Below are positions 1 to 7,023 of a DNA stretch of 10,435 bases, in pieces. The notes below the pieces were generated by a model. It was not told where the DNA came from, did no database searches, and saw only the letters and a program-made list of their open reading frames with translations. Every line of letters starts with the position of its first letter. Position 1 is the stretch's first letter. A program made the position numbers and the translations under genes. The DNA is from a virus (taxonomy: Duplodnaviria > Heunggongvirae > Uroviricota > Caudoviricetes), in the IMG/VR virus record IMGVR_UViG_2671180556_000023, positions 1 to 10,435 of that record; one strand, written 5' to 3'.

Positions 1-2343
1 TCAGGTTGTTGCAGGGTCGTCACATTTTGGCAGCCAGTCGCCGTAGCTTTCCTCTTTCAGCGTCAGGTTGGTCTGTATCCCCTGTTTGGTATGGCGCTTC
101 TCGTAATTCAGTCCGTATTCCTTCAGCATCACCGGCAGCCCCAGCCCGAACATTTTCAGACTGAGTACATTCCGGTAGCCGTTTGCCTCCATGTAGGCCA
201 GATAGGCGTGATAGAGGTATTTACGGTAGTTACGCGGGATGATACTGGCGTTCCCCATATACATGCCGCTGGTCTGCGGCAGGGTTTCCAGATAGCCGAT
301 AAAATCAAACGTCGGGTCGGCATCCCGTTTGATGTTCAGTGCCTCGTCTGAGTTCTGCTGGGACTGAAGCAGTGACCGGGCGAGCATCGGGTCGCTGAAC
401 TTCTGCATCAGGTGACGCACGATGACCGCCAGCTCGCGGGTGATTTTGTCCTTAAGCTGCGGGTCGCGCTCCTGCGGGGCTATCTGTTCCGGGAAGTGAA
501 TAATCACCCGCCGGCGTGACACGCCGCCGCTGCGGTCGGTGAAGCGCATCGGGTTATTGTTCACGGCCAGAATCACCGCCGGGATATGCGTGGAGTACGC
601 ATCCCGGTATTTCGGGTCAACGGACACCGCATCGCCGCCGGTGATGGCCTTGAGTCCGGCACCGTCGCCGCTCCATTTTTCCTGGTCCGGCAGGCGTATC
701 AGTGAGAAGCCAGTTAACGCGGCACGTTCACGCGGGGATTCCAGCGTCTCAATGGTGGCCGACGTGGCGTTATCCTCCCCGGCCAGCAGGGTGGCTATTT
801 CGGCCATGATACTTTTGCCGCTGCCGCCGGGACCGGTCACCTCCAGAAAGAGCTGCCAGTCATAGCGGTTTGCCAGCACCATAAACAGTGCGGCCAGAAT
901 CACGTCGCGTTTTTCCGCACGGCCACCGGCGGCACGGTCAAGCCAGCGCCAGAACGCGGGAGCGTGGGTTTCCAGCGTTTCACCGTCCACCGGCGGGGTG
1001 AAATCCACATCGCACAGGGTGCGCATCCAGTGTGACGGACTGTGCGGGTGGAACGTGCCGTTCTGCGTGTCGAGCACGCCGTTACGAAAGCCAATCAGGC
1101 AGCGGGAGGGGGCTTCCTGCTGCGGAATAATCAGCTTCAGGGTGTCCACCACGGAGGCCACCTTCCCGGAGGAGAACGGCGCACGCAGTCGCTGAAACAG
1201 CCCGGCCACATCCCGGGCAAAGTCCTGTGGCGGCAGCACCTTCCAGACACCATTTTCATAGCGGGACAGAAGCTGGCCGTTGGCATCGACCGCGAGCGCC
1301 TCGCCGTAATGCTCATAGATACGCATGGCCTTTTCGCTGGTACTCATGGCGGAAAACTCCGCTTCGCTCATGGTGTCGAACGGGCTTTCAGTCGGTGGCC
1401 GAATGGCATCGTAAATGGCCTTACGGGTGGCTTCCCCGCCGTACTGCGTGAAGGCATCATTCCAGTCACCGAAGACCGGCGGCAGGGCAACAACACCTTC
1501 ACACGCATCTGCGGCTGCGGCGGCTTTTTTCTGGCCGTCACCGCTGAGGTCACGGTCTGCGGCAAGGACAATCTGACAGGCCGGATGCTTCTGCCGGGCA
1601 AGTCTGGCCAGAGAAAGGAGGTTCACGGAAGAAAGCGCCACCATCACCGTTTCACCGGTCAGGTGATGCACGGTAAGTGCGGTCGCGTATCCCTCCGCTA
1701 TCCACAGACGTTTTCCGGCCTGGTTCTGTCCTTCAAGGGTGTGACAGGTGCCCCTGACCTGTCCGCCTTTCAGGGTGCGCTTACGGCCGTCAGCACTGAT
1801 TAACTGAAGGTTAACCAGTTCGCCGCTGTCGTCATACAGTGGCACCACAAGGTCACCGGCGCGCCAGCTCACGCCACCGGCTCTGTGTGTGCCGGTCAGC
1901 ATCCGGCATTCCCGGCCGGGAAAGCCCTTGCGGGTCAGGTAGGCGTTACCGGTTCCGGGACGGGTTTTCGCCATCAGGGTTTGTGCCAGTGCGGCGGCGT
2001 TCTTCCGGGCAGCGTCTGTTTCAGCACCGGCGGCGGCCGTCACTGCCGGGTCAGCCGGGTCAGCCGGGGGCAGGCTGCCGGTCACGGCAGCCACCTTTGT
2101 GGCCGCGTCGGATGGGGAGACACCAAACACCTTTTCAACCAGTTTCAGACCGTCACCGGCACCACACTGATTGCAGTACCAGGTGCCGCGCCCCTCCCTG
2201 TCATCAAAACGGAAGCGGTCACTCCCGCCACAGACCGGACAGGGCTGATGACGGTTTTTCAGCACCTGAATCCCCAGCGCCGGGAGAATACGCGGCCAGT
2301 GGCCGAGCGCATGGCTGACGGTGGCGGTTACGTTCATTTTCAT
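1..2343 (-). CDS. P4 alpha-type primase-helicase (replication protein), 780 aa, complete
   Basis: Full ORF with ATG at 2343 and TGA at 3-1; AAGGAG Shine-Dalgarno 9 nt upstream (2353-2358 region). N-terminal zinc-ribbon motif CPVCGG...CNQCG typical of primases; Walker A TGPGGSGKS in the C-terminal helicase half. Length is close to the 777 aa I recall for P4 alpha. Confidence 0.9.
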   Translation of the reverse strand: MKMNVTATVSHALGHWPRILPALGIQVLKNRHQPCPVCGGSDRFRFDDREGRGTWYCNQCGAGDGLKLVEKVFGVSPSDAATKVAAVTGSLPPADPADPAVTAAAGAETDAARKNAAALAQTLMAKTRPGTGNAYLTRKGFPGRECRMLTGTHRAGGVSWRAGDLVVPLYDDSGELVNLQLISADGRKRTLKGGQVRGTCHTLEGQNQAGKRLWIAEGYATALTVHHLTGETVMVALSSVNLLSLARLARQKHPACQIVLAADRDLSGDGQKKAAAAADACEGVVALPPVFGDWNDAFTQYGGEATRKAIYDAIRPPTESPFDTMSEAEFSAMSTSEKAMRIYEHYGEALAVDANGQLLSRYENGVWKVLPPQDFARDVAGLFQRLRAPFSSGKVASVVDTLKLIIPQQEAPSRCLIGFRNGVLDTQNGTFHPHSPSHWMRTLCDVDFTPPVDGETLETHAPAFWRWLDRAAGGRAEKRDVILAALFMVLANRYDWQLFLEVTGPGGSGKSIMAEIATLLAGEDNATSATIETLESPRERAALTGFSLIRLPDQEKWSGDGAGLKAITGGDAVSVDPKYRDAYSTHIPAVILAVNNNPMRFTDRSGGVSRRRVIIHFPEQIAPQERDPQLKDKITRELAVIVRHLMQKFSDPMLARSLLQSQQNSDEALNIKRDADPTFDFIGYLETLPQTSGMYMGNASIIPRNYRKYLYHAYLAYMEANGYRNVLSLKMFGLGLPVMLKEYGLNYEKRHTKQGIQTNLTLKEESYGDWLPKCDDPATT

Positions 2344-2357
2344 GGTGTTGTTCTCCT

Positions 2358-2678
2358 TCAGTGCAGTACCGGCGCTTTTATGTGACGGGCACAGAGTTCA
2401 TCCATCACAACCAGCCCGAGAAAGGACAGCGACGGCGCGGCCTTCAGGGGGCCGGATTCCATTAAATCTTCCAGCAGGGCACAGGCTATCTGACGCCCTT
2501 TTTCCTCACCGTGCTGGCGCAGATAAAAGCCCTCCAGCTCAGCGGCGATGGCCGCCTCCAGTGATTCAAGGGTGAGATGCGGGTAGCGGTGCTGACGTTC
2601 GCACACGGTCAGCCAGGCACAGGCGACAGCGCGACGGTAAAGGGCAGCGCGTAAGACGGGCGGTAAGGGTGTTTTCAT
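2358..2678 (-). CDS. Hypothetical 106-aa protein of the P4 left operon (size matches P4 orf106)
   Basis: ATG at 2678 preceded by GGAGG with 7-nt spacer; ends 14 nt before the alpha start. Assignment to P4 orf106 is by size and position only. Confidence 0.6.
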
Positions 2679-2813
2679 TTGTTTTCCTCCCTGTGACAGA
2701 TGACTGCATTCCGTGCCGGTTGCATTAACTGATAAGGCATATCTGCGTCTCCTGAAGACGTGCGTATCCCTGCGCGAATACGCACATTTAATTTTTCGGG
2801 TGTAGTTTTTTAA

Positions 2814-3269
2814 TTACAGATAATTGCGGTAACTGTTATCCGGGGTGATTTCCGGGTCAGGCTCCGTGCGGGGAATTTCCCGCCATTCCCGCGCCACCGG
2901 TGCCGCCCGGCTGGCCGGAACAGTGTCCTGCGGGTAAATATCCAGATATTTCTCCCGCCATTTCTGTAATTCCGGGTCTCCGGCCATTTCTTTCAGTACC
3001 GCATGCCGGTTTACGGGGCTGCGTTTAAACAGGTCAGGACGGTCACAGGTAAATTCCCGCAGAAAACGCCCCAGCGGGATGTCTGTGGTGCGCCCGTCGG
3101 CGAGGATACGCACAAGGATACTGAATTTACGGCGGTACGGGTTCCAGACAATTTCCGGGCAGCGGTACGGCATTTCCCACGGAATACCGTCTTCCAGAAT
3201 GCCGACCACGGCCACATCGGGAAAACCGGCAGAACGGTAAATCTCACCGGGCTGGGGAAAATCAAACAT
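2814..3269 (-). CDS. Hypothetical 151-aa protein (size and position match P4 orf151)
   Basis: ATG at 3269 overlaps the stop of the upstream ORF (ATGTTTGA), indicating translational coupling. Function not inferable from sequence. Confidence 0.7.
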   Translation of the reverse strand: MFDFPQPGEIYRSAGFPDVAVVGILEDGIPWEMPYRCPEIVWNPYRRKFSILVRILADGRTTDIPLGRFLREFTCDRPDLFKRSPVNRHAVLKEMAGDPELQKWREKYLDIYPQDTVPASRAAPVAREWREIPRTEPDPEITPDNSYRNYL

Positions 3270-3549
3270 GCGTCCTGTCTCCCCGGTCTTTCTGCTGGGC
3301 GAGAAAATCGCGGCACAGGCCTTTGGCTTTCAGCTCATTCAGCACAAAATCAATATCTTCATTCAGGTAGCTGAAAATATGCGGAATGTAGAGCTGATGC
3401 AGGCCGGAGAGTTCACGGTGAATCAAATCACCCCCAACAAACTGGGATACGGCGCTGGCGCGGTTGAGCTTATGGTAAGCCTCAATGCTGAGGTGTTCAC
3501 GGGCGTCATGACGCGCTGAGACGGTCTGAGGGGCTTTTTTATTACGCAC
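3262..3549 (-). CDS. Small protein, 95 aa if started at GTG 3549; possible epsilon-like (helper derepression) gene
   Basis: GTG at 3549-3547 preceded by GGAGG with 6-nt spacer and overlapping the kil stop (GTGCGTAA). An alternative in-frame ATG at 3594 gives 110 aa. The epsilon assignment is by position in the operon only. Confidence 0.5.
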
Positions 3550-3739
3550 GGGACACCTCCACCACCGGCAGACGGGCAGCAAGGGAGAGCACATAGTCAC
3601 GGACAAGGGAACGGCGGGCGCTGCGTTCATCACCGGCGACGGTGCGAAGCATGCAGATACGGGGATGACGGTCTGCGCGACGGACAGCCGCAAACACAAA
3701 GACAAATTCAGGGTGTGAGGGGGTAAGGGTTGTAGCCAT
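3542..3739 (-). CDS. kil: Kil-like 65-aa protein (annotated in databases as Icd-like cell division inhibitor)
   Basis: ATG at 3739 with AGGAGG 9 nt upstream; 65 aa, matching the published size of P4 kil; it is the 3' terminal part of the longer eta frame, as described for P4. Confidence 0.75.
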
Positions 3740-4141
3740 GATGGCAGCCTCCTGTGAATAGCAAATAACGCTATCGCCGGAGTTTCCACGCTCGATGGCG
3801 ATAGCCCAGACGGGGGTGGAAATACCGGCTTCACAGGATACCGGCCAGCCCGGAGGCTGCCCCGCCTGAGCTACCATTGACTCTGCGGCATAATGAGCGG
3901 ACGCGGGCAGGATGCACGGAATGCCATCTGCACGACTGACCACACACCACACCATAATCTGGCGCTCTGTGGCGTTGATTGCGACACAAAAAAAGACGCA
4001 TGGCGCGTCATATGTCGCCTGTGAATTGCTCGGGTTTCCACGCCCGGCTGCCGATTTTGCGGCAGCGGAAAAACTATATCCGCAAATGCCGGAAAAAGGC
4101 AAGCCAGAAAAAGGGAGTTTTTGCAGAGCGGGCATCATCAT
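3542..4141 (-). CDS. eta: Eta-like nested ORF, 199 aa, same frame as kil
   Basis: Three consecutive ATG codons at 4141-4133 (MMM) give 199, 198 or 197 aa, matching the published description of P4 eta with three likely start codons; the first ATG overlaps the vis stop (ATGA). The ORF-track start at 4186 is a non-ATG codon and is not used. Confidence 0.5.
3770..3805 (-). other. GC-rich stem-loop in the kil leader (9-bp stem, 18-nt loop), U-rich on its 3' side on the minus strand
   Basis: GCTATCGCC (3770-3778) pairs perfectly with GGCGATAGC (3797-3805). On the minus-strand RNA it is followed by GUUAUUUGCUAUU and lies about 30 nt upstream of the kil start. Confidence 0.4.
4073..4102 (-). promoter_or_regulatory. 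Candidate constitutive sigma70 promoter (PLE-like) inside eta, reading toward kil
   Basis: On the minus strand: -35 TTGCCT (4102-4097), 18-nt spacer, -10 TATAGT (4078-4073). It lies about 395 nt downstream of the predicted PLL start, consistent with the published P4 spacing of roughly 400 nt. Confidence 0.4.
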
Positions 4142-4404
4142 GCGTCGTACCCCCGTTTGCGTCCGGCGATGCGCCCGGCCATCCATGCGGTGACTTCAGA
4201 GTGCAGCCAGGCCACATTTTTACCGCCAAGACTCACCTGCGGCGGAAATTCCCCCTTACGGATGAGTTCATAGATGGTCGAGCGTGACAGGCCGCACAGG
4301 TGCATCACTTCCGGCAGGCGTAAAAAACGCTCCTGCGTGATGTCCGGCAGCGGCATCAGTGGTGTCACAGGGGCGGGAGACGGGGAAGAAAAAACAGCTT
4401 GCAT
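4138..4404 (-). CDS. vis: Vis/AlpA-family small helix-turn-helix regulator, 88 aa
   Basis: ATG at 4404 with GAGG 7 nt upstream; sequence ...[22 protein letters not shown]... is typical of AlpA/Vis-type HTH proteins; 88 aa matches P4 orf88. Confidence 0.85.
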
Positions 4405-4471
4405 CGGGCTACCTCGTTAATGTCCATACAGCACCGGATAAGTCCGTCCGGCTTCGGGTAGCGCTTTATTT

Positions 4472-4524
4472 TGTGAATATTTTCAGCAGACGCAACAGGG
4501 GGGATTTGTTCCGGCAGCCTTACA
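4472..4524 (-). promoter_or_regulatory. Candidate delta/Ogr-dependent late promoter for vis (PLL-like)
   Basis: Perfect TGT-N12-ACA dyad at 4507-4524; a second imperfect dyad at 4472-4489 (TGT-N12-CAG) about 37 bp closer to vis. The two centres fit the -55 and -18 positions described for P4 late promoters, predicting a start near 4460. Confidence 0.35.
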
Positions 4525-4550
4525 ATGGTTGTGTGTTTTTTGTTCATTTC

Positions 4551-4579
4551 CACTTAAAGTCATTTAAAGCCACTTAAAG
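4551..4579. repeat. Three helically phased direct repeats of C(A/T)(C/T)TTAAAG at 10-bp spacing
   Basis: cacttaaag (4551-4559), catttaaag (4561-4569), cacttaaag (4571-4579). Function unknown; lies between the PLL dyad and the iteron cluster. Confidence 0.5.
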
Positions 4580-4683
4580 CAATTTGTAATTTTTATAGTG
4601 AAATACAAATCGTTTCTTCTTATTCATTCCCGGCGAATTAATAAAAACAAACAGTAGTAAACAGCACAAAAAGTCCATGAGCG

Positions 4684-4787
4684 GGTGAACAGTGGTGAAC
4701 AGACGGTGAACAGTCATTACTGCGATTGTTCATCCTTTAACTTACTGTATTACTTATCTTTTTTATTAAGGTGAACAGAGGTGAACA
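4684..4787. repeat. crr-like cis replication region: cluster of TGTTCACC-type iterons
   Basis: GGTGAACA at 4684-4691, 4694-4701, 4705-4712, 4770-4777 and 4780-4787 (direct, 10-11 bp spacing), plus one near-inverted copy TGTTCATC at 4727-4734. The octamer TGTTCACC is the alpha-protein binding repeat described for P4 ori and crr. Confidence 0.7.
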
Positions 4788-4866
4788 GTAAAATATAAAA
4801 AAACAAACAGTAAGCCGGTTTTTCCTGCGACCTTTTCCTGGCTTGCCGGTGTGAGGATGAGTCTCC

Positions 4867-4922
4867 TGTGTCAGGGCTGGCACATCTGCAATGCGTCGTG
4901 TTGCTGTCCGGTGTACGTCACA
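4867..4922 (+). promoter_or_regulatory. Candidate delta/Ogr-dependent late promoter for sid (Psid-like) with two dyads
   Basis: TGT-N12-ACA at 4867-4884 and again at 4905-4922, centres 38 bp apart. These fit the -55 and -18 sites reported for P4 Psid and predict a start near 4931, 26 nt before the sid ATG. Confidence 0.45.
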
Positions 4923-4956
4923 ATTTTCTTAACCTGAAGTGACGAGGAGCCGGAAA

Positions 4957-5691
4957 ATGTCTGACCACACTATCCCTGAATATCTGCAACCCGCACTGGC
5001 ACAACTGGAAAAGGCCAGAGCCGCCCATCTTGAGAACGCCCGCCTGATGGATGAGACCGTCACGGCCATTGAACGGGCAGAGCAGGAAAAAAATGCGCTG
5101 GCGCAGGCCGACGGAAACGACGCTGACGACTGGCGCACGGCCTTTCGTGCAGCCGGTGGTGTCCTGAGCGACGAGCTGAAACAGCGCCACATTGAGCGCG
5201 TGGCACGCCGGGAGCTGGTACAGGAATATGACAATCTGGCCGTGGTGCTGAATTTTGAACGCGAACGCCTGAAAGGGGCGTGTGACAGCACGGCCACCGC
5301 CTACCGGAAGGCACATCATCACCTGCTGAGTCTGTATGCAGAGCATGAGCTGGAACACGCCCTGAATGAAACCTGTGAGGCGCTTGTCCGGGCAATGCAT
5401 CTGAGCATCCTGGTACAGGAAAATCCGCTCGCCAACACCACCGGCCATCAGGGCTACGTCGCACCGGAAAAGGCTGTCATGCAGCAGGTGAAATCATCGC
5501 TGGAACAGAAAATAAAACAGATGCAAATCAGCCTCACCGGCGAGCCGGTTCTCCGGCTGACCGGACTGTCAGCGGCAACACTCCCGCACATGGATTATGA
5601 GGTGGCAGGCACACCGGCACAGCGCAAGGTGTGGCAGGACAAAATAGACCAGCAGGGAGCAGAGCTTAAGGCCAGAGGACTGCTGTCATGA
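4957..5691 (+). CDS. sid: Sid-like capsid size-determination (external scaffold) protein, 244 aa
   Basis: ATG at 4957 with GAGGAG 8 nt upstream; the upstream GTG at 4939 lacks a ribosome-binding site. 244 aa matches P4 Sid; stop overlaps the delta start (ATGA). Confidence 0.85.
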   Translation: MSDHTIPEYLQPALAQLEKARAAHLENARLMDETVTAIERAEQEKNALAQADGNDADDWRTAFRAAGGVLSDELKQRHIERVARRELVQEYDNLAVVLNFERERLKGACDSTATAYRKAHHHLLSLYAEHELEHALNETCEALVRAMHLSILVQENPLANTTGHQGYVAPEKAVMQQVKSSLEQKIKQMQISLTGEPVLRLTGLSAATLPHMDYEVAGTPAQRKVWQDKIDQQGAELKARGLLS

Positions 5692-6188
5692 TTTACTGCC
5701 CGTCGTGTGGACATGTTGCTCATACCCGTCGCGCACATTTCATGGACGATGGCACCAAGATAATGATTGCACAGTGCCGGAATATTTATTGCTCTGCGAC
5801 ATTTGAAGCGAGTGAAAGCTTTTTCTCTGACTGTAAAGATTCAGGAATGGAATACATTTCAGGCAAACAGAGATACCGCGATTCACTGACTTCTGCCTCC
5901 GGCAGTATGAAACGCCCGAAAAGAATGCTTGTTACCGGATATTGTTGTCGGAGATGTAAAGGCCTTGCACTGTCAAGAACATCGCGGCGTCTGTCTCAGG
6001 AAGTCACTGAACGTTTTTATGTGTGCACGGATCCGGGCTGTGGTCTGGTGTTTAAAACGCTTCAGACCATCAACCGCTTCATTGTCCGCCCGGTCACGCC
6101 GGACGAACTGGCAGAAAGCCTGCATGAAAAACAGGAACTGCCGCCAGTACGGTTAAAAACACAATCATATTCGCTGCGTCTGGAATGA
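5688..6188 (+). CDS. delta: Delta-like late transcription activator (tandem Ogr-type zinc finger), 166 aa
   Basis: Two Ogr-like zinc-finger units (CPSCGH...C..IYC and CCRRC...C..PGC); 166 aa matches P4 delta; translationally coupled to sid. Confidence 0.9.
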   Translation: MIYCPSCGHVAHTRRAHFMDDGTKIMIAQCRNIYCSATFEASESFFSDCKDSGMEYISGKQRYRDSLTSASGSMKRPKRMLVTGYCCRRCKGLALSRTSRRLSQEVTERFYVCTDPGCGLVFKTLQTINRFIVRPVTPDELAESLHEKQELPPVRLKTQSYSLRLE

Positions 6189-6261
6189 GGGCTGCCGGTT
6201 AACCCCGGCCGTCGCCGCACACCGTATTTTTATTCTTCAGCATGATGAGAAAGAGATAACG

Positions 6262-6834
6262 ATGGAAAGCACAGCCTTACAGCAGGCCTTTGACACCTGT
6301 CAGAATAACAAAGCAGCATGGCTGCAACGCAAAAATGAGCTGGCTGCGGCCGAACAGGAATATCTGCGGCTTCTGTCAGGAGAAGGCAGAAACGTCAGTC
6401 GCCTGGACGAATTACGCAATATTATCGAAGTCAGAAAATGGCAGGTGAATCAGGCCGCCGGTCGTTATATTCGTTCGCATGAAGCCGTTCAGCATATCAG
6501 CATCCGCGACCGGCTGAATGATTTTATGCAGCAGCACGGCACAGCACTGGCGGCGGCACTGGCACCGGAGCTGATGGGCTACAGTGAGCTGACGGCCATT
6601 GCCCGAAACTGTGCCATACAGCGTGCCACAGATGCCCTGCGTGAAGCCCTTTTGTCCTGGCTTGCGAAGGGGGAAAAAATTAATTATTCCGCACAGGATA
6701 GCGACATTTTAACGGCCATCGGATTCAGGCCTGACGCGGCTTCGGTGGATGACAGCCGTGAAAAATTCACCCCTGCGCAGAACATGATTTTTTCGCGCAA
6801 AAGTGCGCAACTGGCATCACATCAGTCTGTGTAA
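6262..6834 (+). CDS. psu: Psu-like polarity suppression / capsid decoration protein, 190 aa
   Basis: ATG at 6262, TAA at 6832-6834; 190 aa matches P4 Psu and the N-terminus MESTALQQAFDTCQNNKAAWLQRKNELAAAEQEYL is as I recall for Psu. Confidence 0.85.
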   Translation: MESTALQQAFDTCQNNKAAWLQRKNELAAAEQEYLRLLSGEGRNVSRLDELRNIIEVRKWQVNQAAGRYIRSHEAVQHISIRDRLNDFMQQHGTALAAALAPELMGYSELTAIARNCAIQRATDALREALLSWLAKGEKINYSAQDSDILTAIGFRPDAASVDDSREKFTPAQNMIFSRKSAQLASHQSV

Positions 6835-6867
6835 AACTCCCCGAAAATCCGCCCGTTTTTACTGAAA

Positions 6868-6898
6868 AAAGCCATGCATCGATAAGGTGCATGGCTTT
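6868..6898. terminator. Stem-loop downstream of psu (11-bp stem, 9-nt loop), weak terminator candidate
   Basis: aaAGCCATGCA (6868-6878) pairs with TGCATGGCTtt (6888-6898). The U-tract is weak on both strands, so terminator function is uncertain. Confidence 0.3.
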
Positions 6899-6979
6899 GC
6901 ATGCGTTTTCCTGACTCATTTTCTGCAGATCAGGCCACGCCCGGCACGGCCTGAGCGTGACTGTGCAACTGCATTAAAA

Positions 6980-6999
6980 CCGCCCTGCAAAGCGGGCGG
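6980..6999 (-). terminator. GC-rich hairpin followed by UUUU on the minus strand, just past cos; candidate terminator for the cargo operon
   Basis: CCGCCC (6980-6985) pairs with GGGCGG (6994-6999), 8-nt loop; on the minus strand the hairpin is followed by TTTTAATGC. Confidence 0.35.
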
Positions 7000-7017
7000 G
7001 CGAGGCGGGGAAAGCAC
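6999..7017. other. cos site: 19-nt P2/P4-type cohesive end
   Basis: GGCGAGGCGGGGAAAGCAC at 6999-7017 matches the 19-nt cohesive end sequence I recall for P2 and P4; it sits about 165 bp after psu, as in P4. Confidence 0.75.
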
Positions 7018-7023
7018 TGCGCG

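Follow-up and report, generated by a model that had tools for sequence, protein, structure and literature searches.

A P4-type replication origin and a predicted P2 Cox-box array in the vis-sid gap of a P4-like satellite prophage

Which control signals does the repeat-rich segment at positions 4550-4787 of the DNA studied here contain, and which proteins would act on them? The stretch analysed measures 10,435 nt (hereafter, the window). A preliminary description had taken a cluster of octamers in the segment for a crr-like element that forms a complete replication pair with the alpha gene of the same window, and had left the adjacent TTAAAG repeats without an explanation. Our follow-up analysis assigns the two kinds of repeats to two control elements already known from P4-type satellite prophages, namely the replication origin ori1 and a cox-box array for the Cox protein of phage P2, a reading that we hold with a probability of roughly 0.93; binding, activation and replication of this very sequence are what we infer from the P4 literature. 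The segment itself is thus already known and common, i.e. textbook P4 biology, and only the diversity of the corresponding cassette among relatives may be new.

A megablast comparison with phage records aligned window positions 1-6998 with P4 (X51522) 4636-11624 at 98.2% identity, a match that begins at the alpha stop codon and ends at the right cohesive end. Positions 6999-10435 are unlike P4, with a reverse transcriptase of the retron type and an integrase region of a different kind. Besides, a chromosomal prophage of E. coli Z1323HEC0393 (NZ_CP148357) is 99.98% identical across the full window, from which it departs by one mismatch and one single-base indel. On sequence grounds, the window is a P4-like satellite prophage that runs from the alpha stop codon to a point within the (truncated) int gene. 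Such elements are widespread: the P4-type segment was found in 1005 of 5426 complete E. coli genomes, that is, in about one fifth.

The segment is part of the 550-bp gap that separates the divergent genes vis and sid, and the features around it are as follows (window coordinates):

1..2343, minus strand: alpha gene, encoding a primase, an SF3 helicase and a C-terminal winged-helix origin-binding domain; 98% identical to P4 alpha.
4138..4404, minus strand: vis (orf88), AlpA-family regulator/excisionase, first gene of the leftward late (PLL) transcript; 99% identical to P4 ORF88.
4507..4524, no strand assigned: TGT-N12-ACA dyad found by pattern match, putative delta/Ogr activator site of the leftward promoter PLL (at about -55).
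4867-4884 and 4905-4922, no strand assigned: two TGT-N12-ACA dyads, putative delta/Ogr sites of the rightward promoter Psid; identical in P4.
4958..5691, plus strand: sid, first gene of the rightward late operon (sid-delta-psu); corresponds to P4 sid 9583-10317 at 98% identity.
6999..7017, plus strand: cos, the 19-nt cohesive-end sequence GGCGAGGCGGGGAAAGCAC; exact match.

The vis product matches Pfam Phage_AlpA (E 7e-21). The TGT-N12-ACA dyads, which we take to be the delta/Ogr activator sites of P2/P4 late promoters, flank the octamer cluster toward vis and toward sid, and in the dyad of PLL the P4 sequence retains TGT and ACA while differing at three spacer positions. The positions of PLL and Psid were set by these sites only and the PLL start site was deduced, and within that frame the location between divergent late promoters given in the preliminary description agrees with ours. 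A scan of 4350-5000 for sigma-70 promoters returned no match, as expected of activator-dependent late promoters such as PLL and Psid. Two terminator-like matches in the region arise from the pairing of iterons 3 and 4 and from part of the PLL dyad, and were not taken as terminators. Around cos, the similarity extends to P2, whose cos region matches window 6964-7025.

As for the protein expected to act in trans, the alpha ORF is intact and, over residues 661-774, a stretch that includes the DNA-binding domain, does not differ from P4 alpha. It matches the Pfam families Zn_Ribbon_Prim, Toprim, D5_N and Pox_D5, and residues 671-770 match the solved DNA-binding domain of P4 alpha (PDB 1KA8, E 1e-63), in keeping with the described domain organisation of this protein (PMC2777425). 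Alpha is therefore predicted to be the trans-acting initiator cognate to ori1. Elsewhere in the protein, alpha carries a three-residue insertion relative to P4 (an extra PAD in a PADPA repeat at residues ~95-100, window ~2040-2060), and the RefSeq model of the near-identical genome measures 780 aa compared to 777 aa in P4.

The octamer GGTGAACA is present exactly five times in the 10,435-nt window, at 4684, 4694, 4705, 4770 and 4780, always on the plus strand, against a chance expectation of 0.33, and none of 200 shuffles reached five copies. Start-to-start distances between the exact copies are 10, 11, 65 and 10 bp. An inverted copy with one mismatch (TGTTCATC on the plus strand, GATGAACA on the minus strand) starts at 4727, and its inclusion yields six sites with spacings of 10, 11, 22, 43 and 10 bp, all near whole helical turns. 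In these respects, the preliminary description was accurate: five direct octamers at helical spacing do cluster at 4684-4787, a near-inverted copy does occupy 4727-4734, the count that it proposed as a check places all five copies in the cluster and none elsewhere in the window, and the octamer is indeed the alpha-binding repeat of P4, termed 'type 1' in the annotation of X51522. Together with the sequence that they enclose, the sites are arranged as follows:

4684..4712, plus strand: type 1 iterons 1-3, GGTGAACA on the plus and TGTTCACC on the minus strand; P4 9310-9338, 'ori type 1 repeat'.
4727..4734, plus strand: type 1 iteron 4, inverted, TGTTCATC; P4 has TGTTCACC.
4735..4769, no strand assigned: 35-bp stretch of 83% A+T (GC 0.17) between iterons 4 and 5, strongly conserved in relatives.
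4770..4787, plus strand: type 1 iterons 5 and 6, GGTGAACA at 4770 and 4780; P4 annotation 9396-9413.

We accordingly list the type 1 iterons as predicted alpha-binding sites and the 35-bp A+T-rich stretch as the presumed unwinding region of ori1.

In P4, the same octamer serves two elements, the origin and crr, the second alpha-binding site of the satellite, and the alignment speaks for the former. Between window 4400-4960 and P4 9026-9586, the alignment shows 11 substitutions and is free of indels, and the studied segment aligns, likewise without indels, to P4 9177-9413. The match to X51522 8926-9626 (97.9-98%, no indels) has an annotated rep_origin beneath it, as X51522 9086-9809 is annotated 'origin of DNA replication' and includes six 'ori type 1' repeats at P4 9310-9413 (window 4684-4787) as well as three 'ori type 2' repeats at P4 9176-9205 (window 4550-4579). 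The segment and the P4 ori are 98% identical without indels and share six type 1 iterons at matching positions, the 35-bp A+T-rich core, the placement between vis (orf88) and sid, and a cognate alpha that is identical over residues 661-774. They differ in one C-to-T change in iteron 4 of the window (TGTTCATC) and in ten other substitutions within the 561-nt intergenic alignment, none of which falls into the other five iterons or the cox-boxes.

Annotated crr, on the other hand, occupies X51522 4291-4590. There it follows alpha directly, lies between attP and the terminator of alpha, and is built from a pair of 120-bp direct repeats, each of which contains five type 1 repeats in mixed orientation. 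The window cluster shares with it the alpha-binding octamer TGTTCACC and, beyond the octamers, nothing that can be aligned. Unlike crr, which sits next to attP, the cluster is found in the vis-sid gap, at 2.2-2.45 kb upstream of the alpha start; no duplication of ~120 bp was detected in window 4400-4950, and a search of the segment against the whole of P4 (blastn, word size 7, E<=1e-3) returned P4 9066-9526, i.e. ori, only and no crr match. In the near-identical NZ_CP148357 prophage, the sole other octamer cluster maps to window-equivalent positions -322 to -66, i.e. about 60-330 bp outside the left edge, and comprises two ~120-bp direct repeats that align to P4 crr. That the window cluster should itself be crr and complete a replication pair with alpha, as its octamer and the presence of alpha inside the window might suggest, is therefore very improbable: the cluster aligns to ori, it lacks the duplication and the place after alpha that mark crr at 4291-4590, and the true crr homologue lies outside the window. 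The crr-like label of the preliminary description consequently has to be replaced by that of the annotated P4 ori. It had itself named a P4 crr at another location with another repeat as what would refute it; the location does differ, and this tells against the crr-like label, although crr uses the same octamer. The assignment of the octamers as alpha-binding repeats holds.

The distinction between ori and crr matters for what the window could do. For replication from ori1, crr is reportedly required in cis. This partner is missing from the window and found in the NZ_CP148357 prophage, so that ori plus alpha in the window make up an incomplete replicon, whereas the full element has all parts. 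Of the complete cis/trans pair previously claimed, there remains an intact alpha gene within the window, but not the completeness, as crr is outside. Similarly, the suggestion that the element is competent for replication and packaging stands with respect to a perfect 19-nt cos and fails for a window that, devoid of crr, is an incomplete replicon. Two corrections to the annotation follow: the cluster should be labelled ori rather than crr, and the window alone, without the second cis site, should not be regarded as a self-sufficient replicon.

Plasmid iterons often double as operators, and this cluster is located exactly between PLL and Psid. One could hence imagine that its role is mainly transcriptional, e.g. 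alpha-mediated control or insulation of the divergent late promoters, instead of that of an origin. We regard this as hardly credible for a cluster that has been annotated and mapped as the P4 origin and whose iteron geometry and A+T-rich core show the conservation that one would expect in an origin; a regulatory side role would come on top of the origin function.

The conservation of ori1 was assessed in 80 loci with relatives of alpha (57-99% identity) taken from species genomes. Exact octamers cluster upstream of alpha (ori) among these loci, and many of them have a further octamer cluster 55-310 nt downstream of alpha (crr). In the 42 related loci with a delimitable vis-sid gap, to which the iteron comparison was limited (alpha 60-84% identical), all six iterons occupy the same relative positions within 2 bp, with a nearly invariant GTGAA core, drift at one or two flanking positions, and iteron 6 as the most degenerate of the six. 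Only two blocks of the vis-sid gap are conserved by BLAST, namely 4442-4484 (PLL core and leader) and 4683-4850 (iterons and A+T core). The minimal ori1 is said to be a 123-bp sequence with six iterons and a 35-bp A+T-rich region, a make-up with which the 35-bp stretch of 83% A+T in the window agrees, and loss of a single iteron reportedly inactivates ori1. The C-to-T change by which iteron 4 departs from P4 may thus lower ori1 function; however, E. coli O157 Z910 and a Kluyvera locus (L060) carry this variant as well, and its recurrence in other natural elements suggests that it is probably a tolerated polymorphism. In more distant elements (alpha 60-69% identical; L046-L054, L061-L078), the iteron consensus shifts from GGTGAACA to GGTGAAGA/GGTGAAGG and the six-site geometry is retained despite this drift, which could be a case of co-evolution with the alpha DNA-binding domain.

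The second half of our question concerns the TTAAAG repeats. They read CCACTTAAAG / TCATTTAAAG / CCACTTAAAG at 4550-4579, have the form CCAYTTAAAG and follow each other at exactly 10 bp. The preliminary description was correct in that the repeats are real and phased by 10 bp, but they need not be considered unexplained, as they match the known consensus of P2 cox-boxes (PMC3936717). The features in question are:

4554..4582, plus strand: three predicted cox-boxes, TTAAAGTCA, TTAAAGCCA and TTAAAGCAA, at 4554, 4564 and 4574; they correspond to the P4 'ori type 2' 10-mers at window 4550-4579.
4583..4683, no strand assigned: A+T-rich spacer (GC 22-35%), poorly conserved in relatives (no BLAST conservation).

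P2 Cox binds cox-boxes of the consensus TTAAA(G/C)NC(A/C) spaced by 10-11 nt, with at least six boxes per site and a footprint of at least 70 nt (PMC3936717, PMC5009727). In P4, a Cox site is located upstream of PLL (PMC3936717), and Cox activates PLL and thereby derepresses the P4 prophage (PMC3936717, PMC5009727, PMC6092414). Two of the boxes in the window fit the consensus perfectly and one with a single mismatch; a chain of at least three in-phase matches occurs only here in the window and in none of 300 shuffles. The boxes are positioned 30-58 bp past the TGT-N12-ACA site of PLL on the side facing away from vis, and the best local match of the segment in the P2 int-cox region is the Pc promoter/Cox operator (z 4.3). 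Thus, the TTAAAG repeats are known cox-boxes and are predicted to form a P2 Cox binding array upstream of PLL.

With the Cox operators of P4 PLL, P2 Pc and P2 attP, the array shares the consensus and the direct repetition at 10 bp, and with that of P4 PLL also the position upstream of the promoter, from which the boxes point away. It differs from them in number, as there are three strong boxes in the window compared to at least six per site in the literature; P4 shows a fourth box at two mismatches, and any further boxes would be weak matches. The A+T-rich spacer at 4583-4683 may hold the extended Cox footprint. A further difference is that the three boxes of the satellite are nearer to the consensus than any run examined in the switch/att segment of P2, where positions 24000-27500 (L085) contain no chain of at least three boxes with at most one mismatch.

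Where the window has cox-boxes, relatives of the element carry other direct repeats that are likewise phased by 10 bp. Across 25 non-redundant loci, self-identity at lag 10 amounts to 0.417 versus 0.273 in shuffles (z 13.8), with a second signal at lag 20 (z 7.4), and the neighbouring segment of the same 25 loci shows no lag-10 signal. In E. coli O157 Z910 and MARGA_4, the whole gap is nearly identical to that of the window except for ~45 bp (~4543-4590), in which they have other repeats. This comparative pattern lends independent support to the interpretation of the window repeats as a Cox site.

The relatives also bear on whether a different protein, or none, accounts for the TTAAAG repeats. 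Vis reportedly regulates both PLL and Psid, which would make it a candidate binder. The targets of recombination directionality factors are direct repeats spaced by one turn of the helix (PMC7498355), an arrangement that would suit Vis operators, and the GenBank name of the repeats, 'ori type 2 repeat', would in turn suit an essential part of the origin. That the repeats are one of these rather than a site for the Cox of a helper is nonetheless unlikely. O157 Z910 and MARGA_4 encode a Vis identical to that of the window (WP_001149160.1) yet carry other repeats than the window in the ~45-bp segment, near-identical helix-turn-helix regions of Vis are paired with different arrays across genera, and no further copy of the element-specific motif was found near att, another site of Vis action. 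As to the origin, the array is not conserved together with the iteron block, and the 123-bp minimal ori1 reportedly leaves it out. Moreover, the repeats fit the P2 cox-box consensus (PMC3936717). Vis was accordingly rejected as the binder, an identical protein (WP_001149160.1) being found with different repeats in three E. coli elements. Arm-type sites of Int were likewise discarded, as the arm repeats of P4 are of the GGGGGCAT type and unrelated to the TTAAAG repeats.

If the window repeats are a site for P2 Cox, the arrays of the relatives might be matched to other helpers. We typed them by local alignment against annotated helper regions, with shuffles, and by a pattern scan of IMG/VR. At least three in-phase TGGCAA-like hexamers are present in 14 of 43 loci from other genera and in none of 100 shuffles; TGGCAA is the operator of phage 186 Apl, according to the annotated Apl sites of U32222. 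For 13 of 24 non-redundant arrays, the best match in a 4-kb segment of 186 lies within the two annotated Apl regions, together 3% of its length, and the repeats of E. coli NCTC9041 match the annotated Apl site at attP of 186 (z 4.0). For the O157 repeats, no match was obtained in P2 or 186, and the one in WPhi is located in the DNA that separates attP from int (GGACTGGAAGGG..CAAA..GTTCTGA; z 6.0). When 2.9 million IMG/VR contigs were scanned for GGACTGGAAGGGNNNCAAA, 36 loci came up: half (18) belong to P4-like satellites, in which the motif precedes vis by about 146 nt, eight belong to phages whose Cox is 100% identical to that of WPhi and in which the motif typically lies 47 nt past the int stop codon, and the remaining ten are unrelated. 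WPhi Cox reportedly neither binds cox-boxes nor activates P4 (PMC5009727). A BLAST search of the 51-nt arrays against 50,697 phage genomes gave chance matches only, the queries being too short and imperfect. Array types without a helper match were also encountered, e.g. in MARGA_4, L026/L036, L046/L050 and L051-L054.

The Apl operators of 186 (pR-pL and attP) and the WPhi Cox site resemble the array of the window in being short direct-repeat arrays with a 10-11 bp period that belong to an excisionase-regulator of the helper. They differ in the repeats themselves (TGGCAA, and GGACTGGAAGGG..., respectively), and it is the relatives that carry such arrays in place of cox-boxes, the window being of the P2 type only. 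Three types can be told apart so far by their helper match:

P2 Cox boxes: the window and P4.
WPhi-type repeats: e.g. E. coli O157 Z910.
186 Apl-type TGGCAA repeats: E. coli NCTC9041, besides 14 of 43 elements in other genera.

The putative cassette would hold a fixed position, between the PLL activator site and ori1. Taken together, the diversity of the arrays and their matches to helper operators suggest a swappable helper-sensing cassette. Hence, we somewhat favour the view that the ~45-bp segment (~4543-4590) is such a cassette generally in P4-like satellites, matched to the Cox/Apl operator of a helper lineage, deciding which helper wakes the satellite, and exchanged independently of the satellite genes. 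No account of this diversity came up in the searchable literature, including the main survey of P4-like satellites, a body of work that leaves older P2/P4 papers mostly uncovered. If true, the sequence would directly reveal which satellites pair with which helpers throughout the Enterobacterales. In several satellites, the TGGCAA arrays are cleaner than those of 186, and satellites may carry stronger sites than their helpers.

By analogy with P4, the two elements of the segment most likely act as follows. Upon infection by, or induction of, P2, its Cox protein would polymerise on the cox-boxes upstream of PLL and, in the model of PMC3936717, wrap or bend the DNA away from the promoter. PLL would then fire, the operon from vis to alpha would be transcribed, and the satellite would wake. 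Alpha, through its C-terminal winged-helix domain, would bind the six iterons on one face of the helix, 100 bp from the cox-boxes, as well as crr 4.5 kb away. The A+T core would melt, and alpha, serving as its own helicase and primase, would unwind and prime the DNA. Later, delta/Ogr would drive PLL and Psid through the TGT-N12-ACA sites.

A few further observations concern the remainder of the element. Rfam matches on the minus strand of window 3794-4079 comprise the C4 antisense RNA (3794-3881), isrK (3989-4066) and the c4 target a1b1 (4027-4079); the RNA-based immunity region of P4, downstream of PLE, is intact. The NZ_CP148357 prophage (genome context in locus L004, 759-1106 and 12191-20029) resides inside the receptor gene fhuE, two fragments of which flank it, and no tRNA gene was found within 20 kb. 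IS66-family insertions truncate its int gene at the 5' end, and excision of this prophage may therefore be defective. At window 7024-9196 (minus strand), a reverse transcriptase and an ORF upstream of it stand in place of the P4 genes gop, beta and cII. The reverse transcriptase measures 486 aa, matches Pfam RVT_1 and is named 'retron St85 family' in RefSeq; neither did the upstream ORF match Pfam nor was a retron RNA family matched in Rfam. Both genes probably constitute an anti-phage retron in an accessory slot between cos and int. The single-base indel that distinguishes the window from NZ_CP148357 lies at ~8640 and alters the upstream ORF, which in the window is 205 aa long and has a TTG start, compared to the 236 aa annotated in the RefSeq genome; it could be a frameshift in either the window or the NZ_CP148357 copy.
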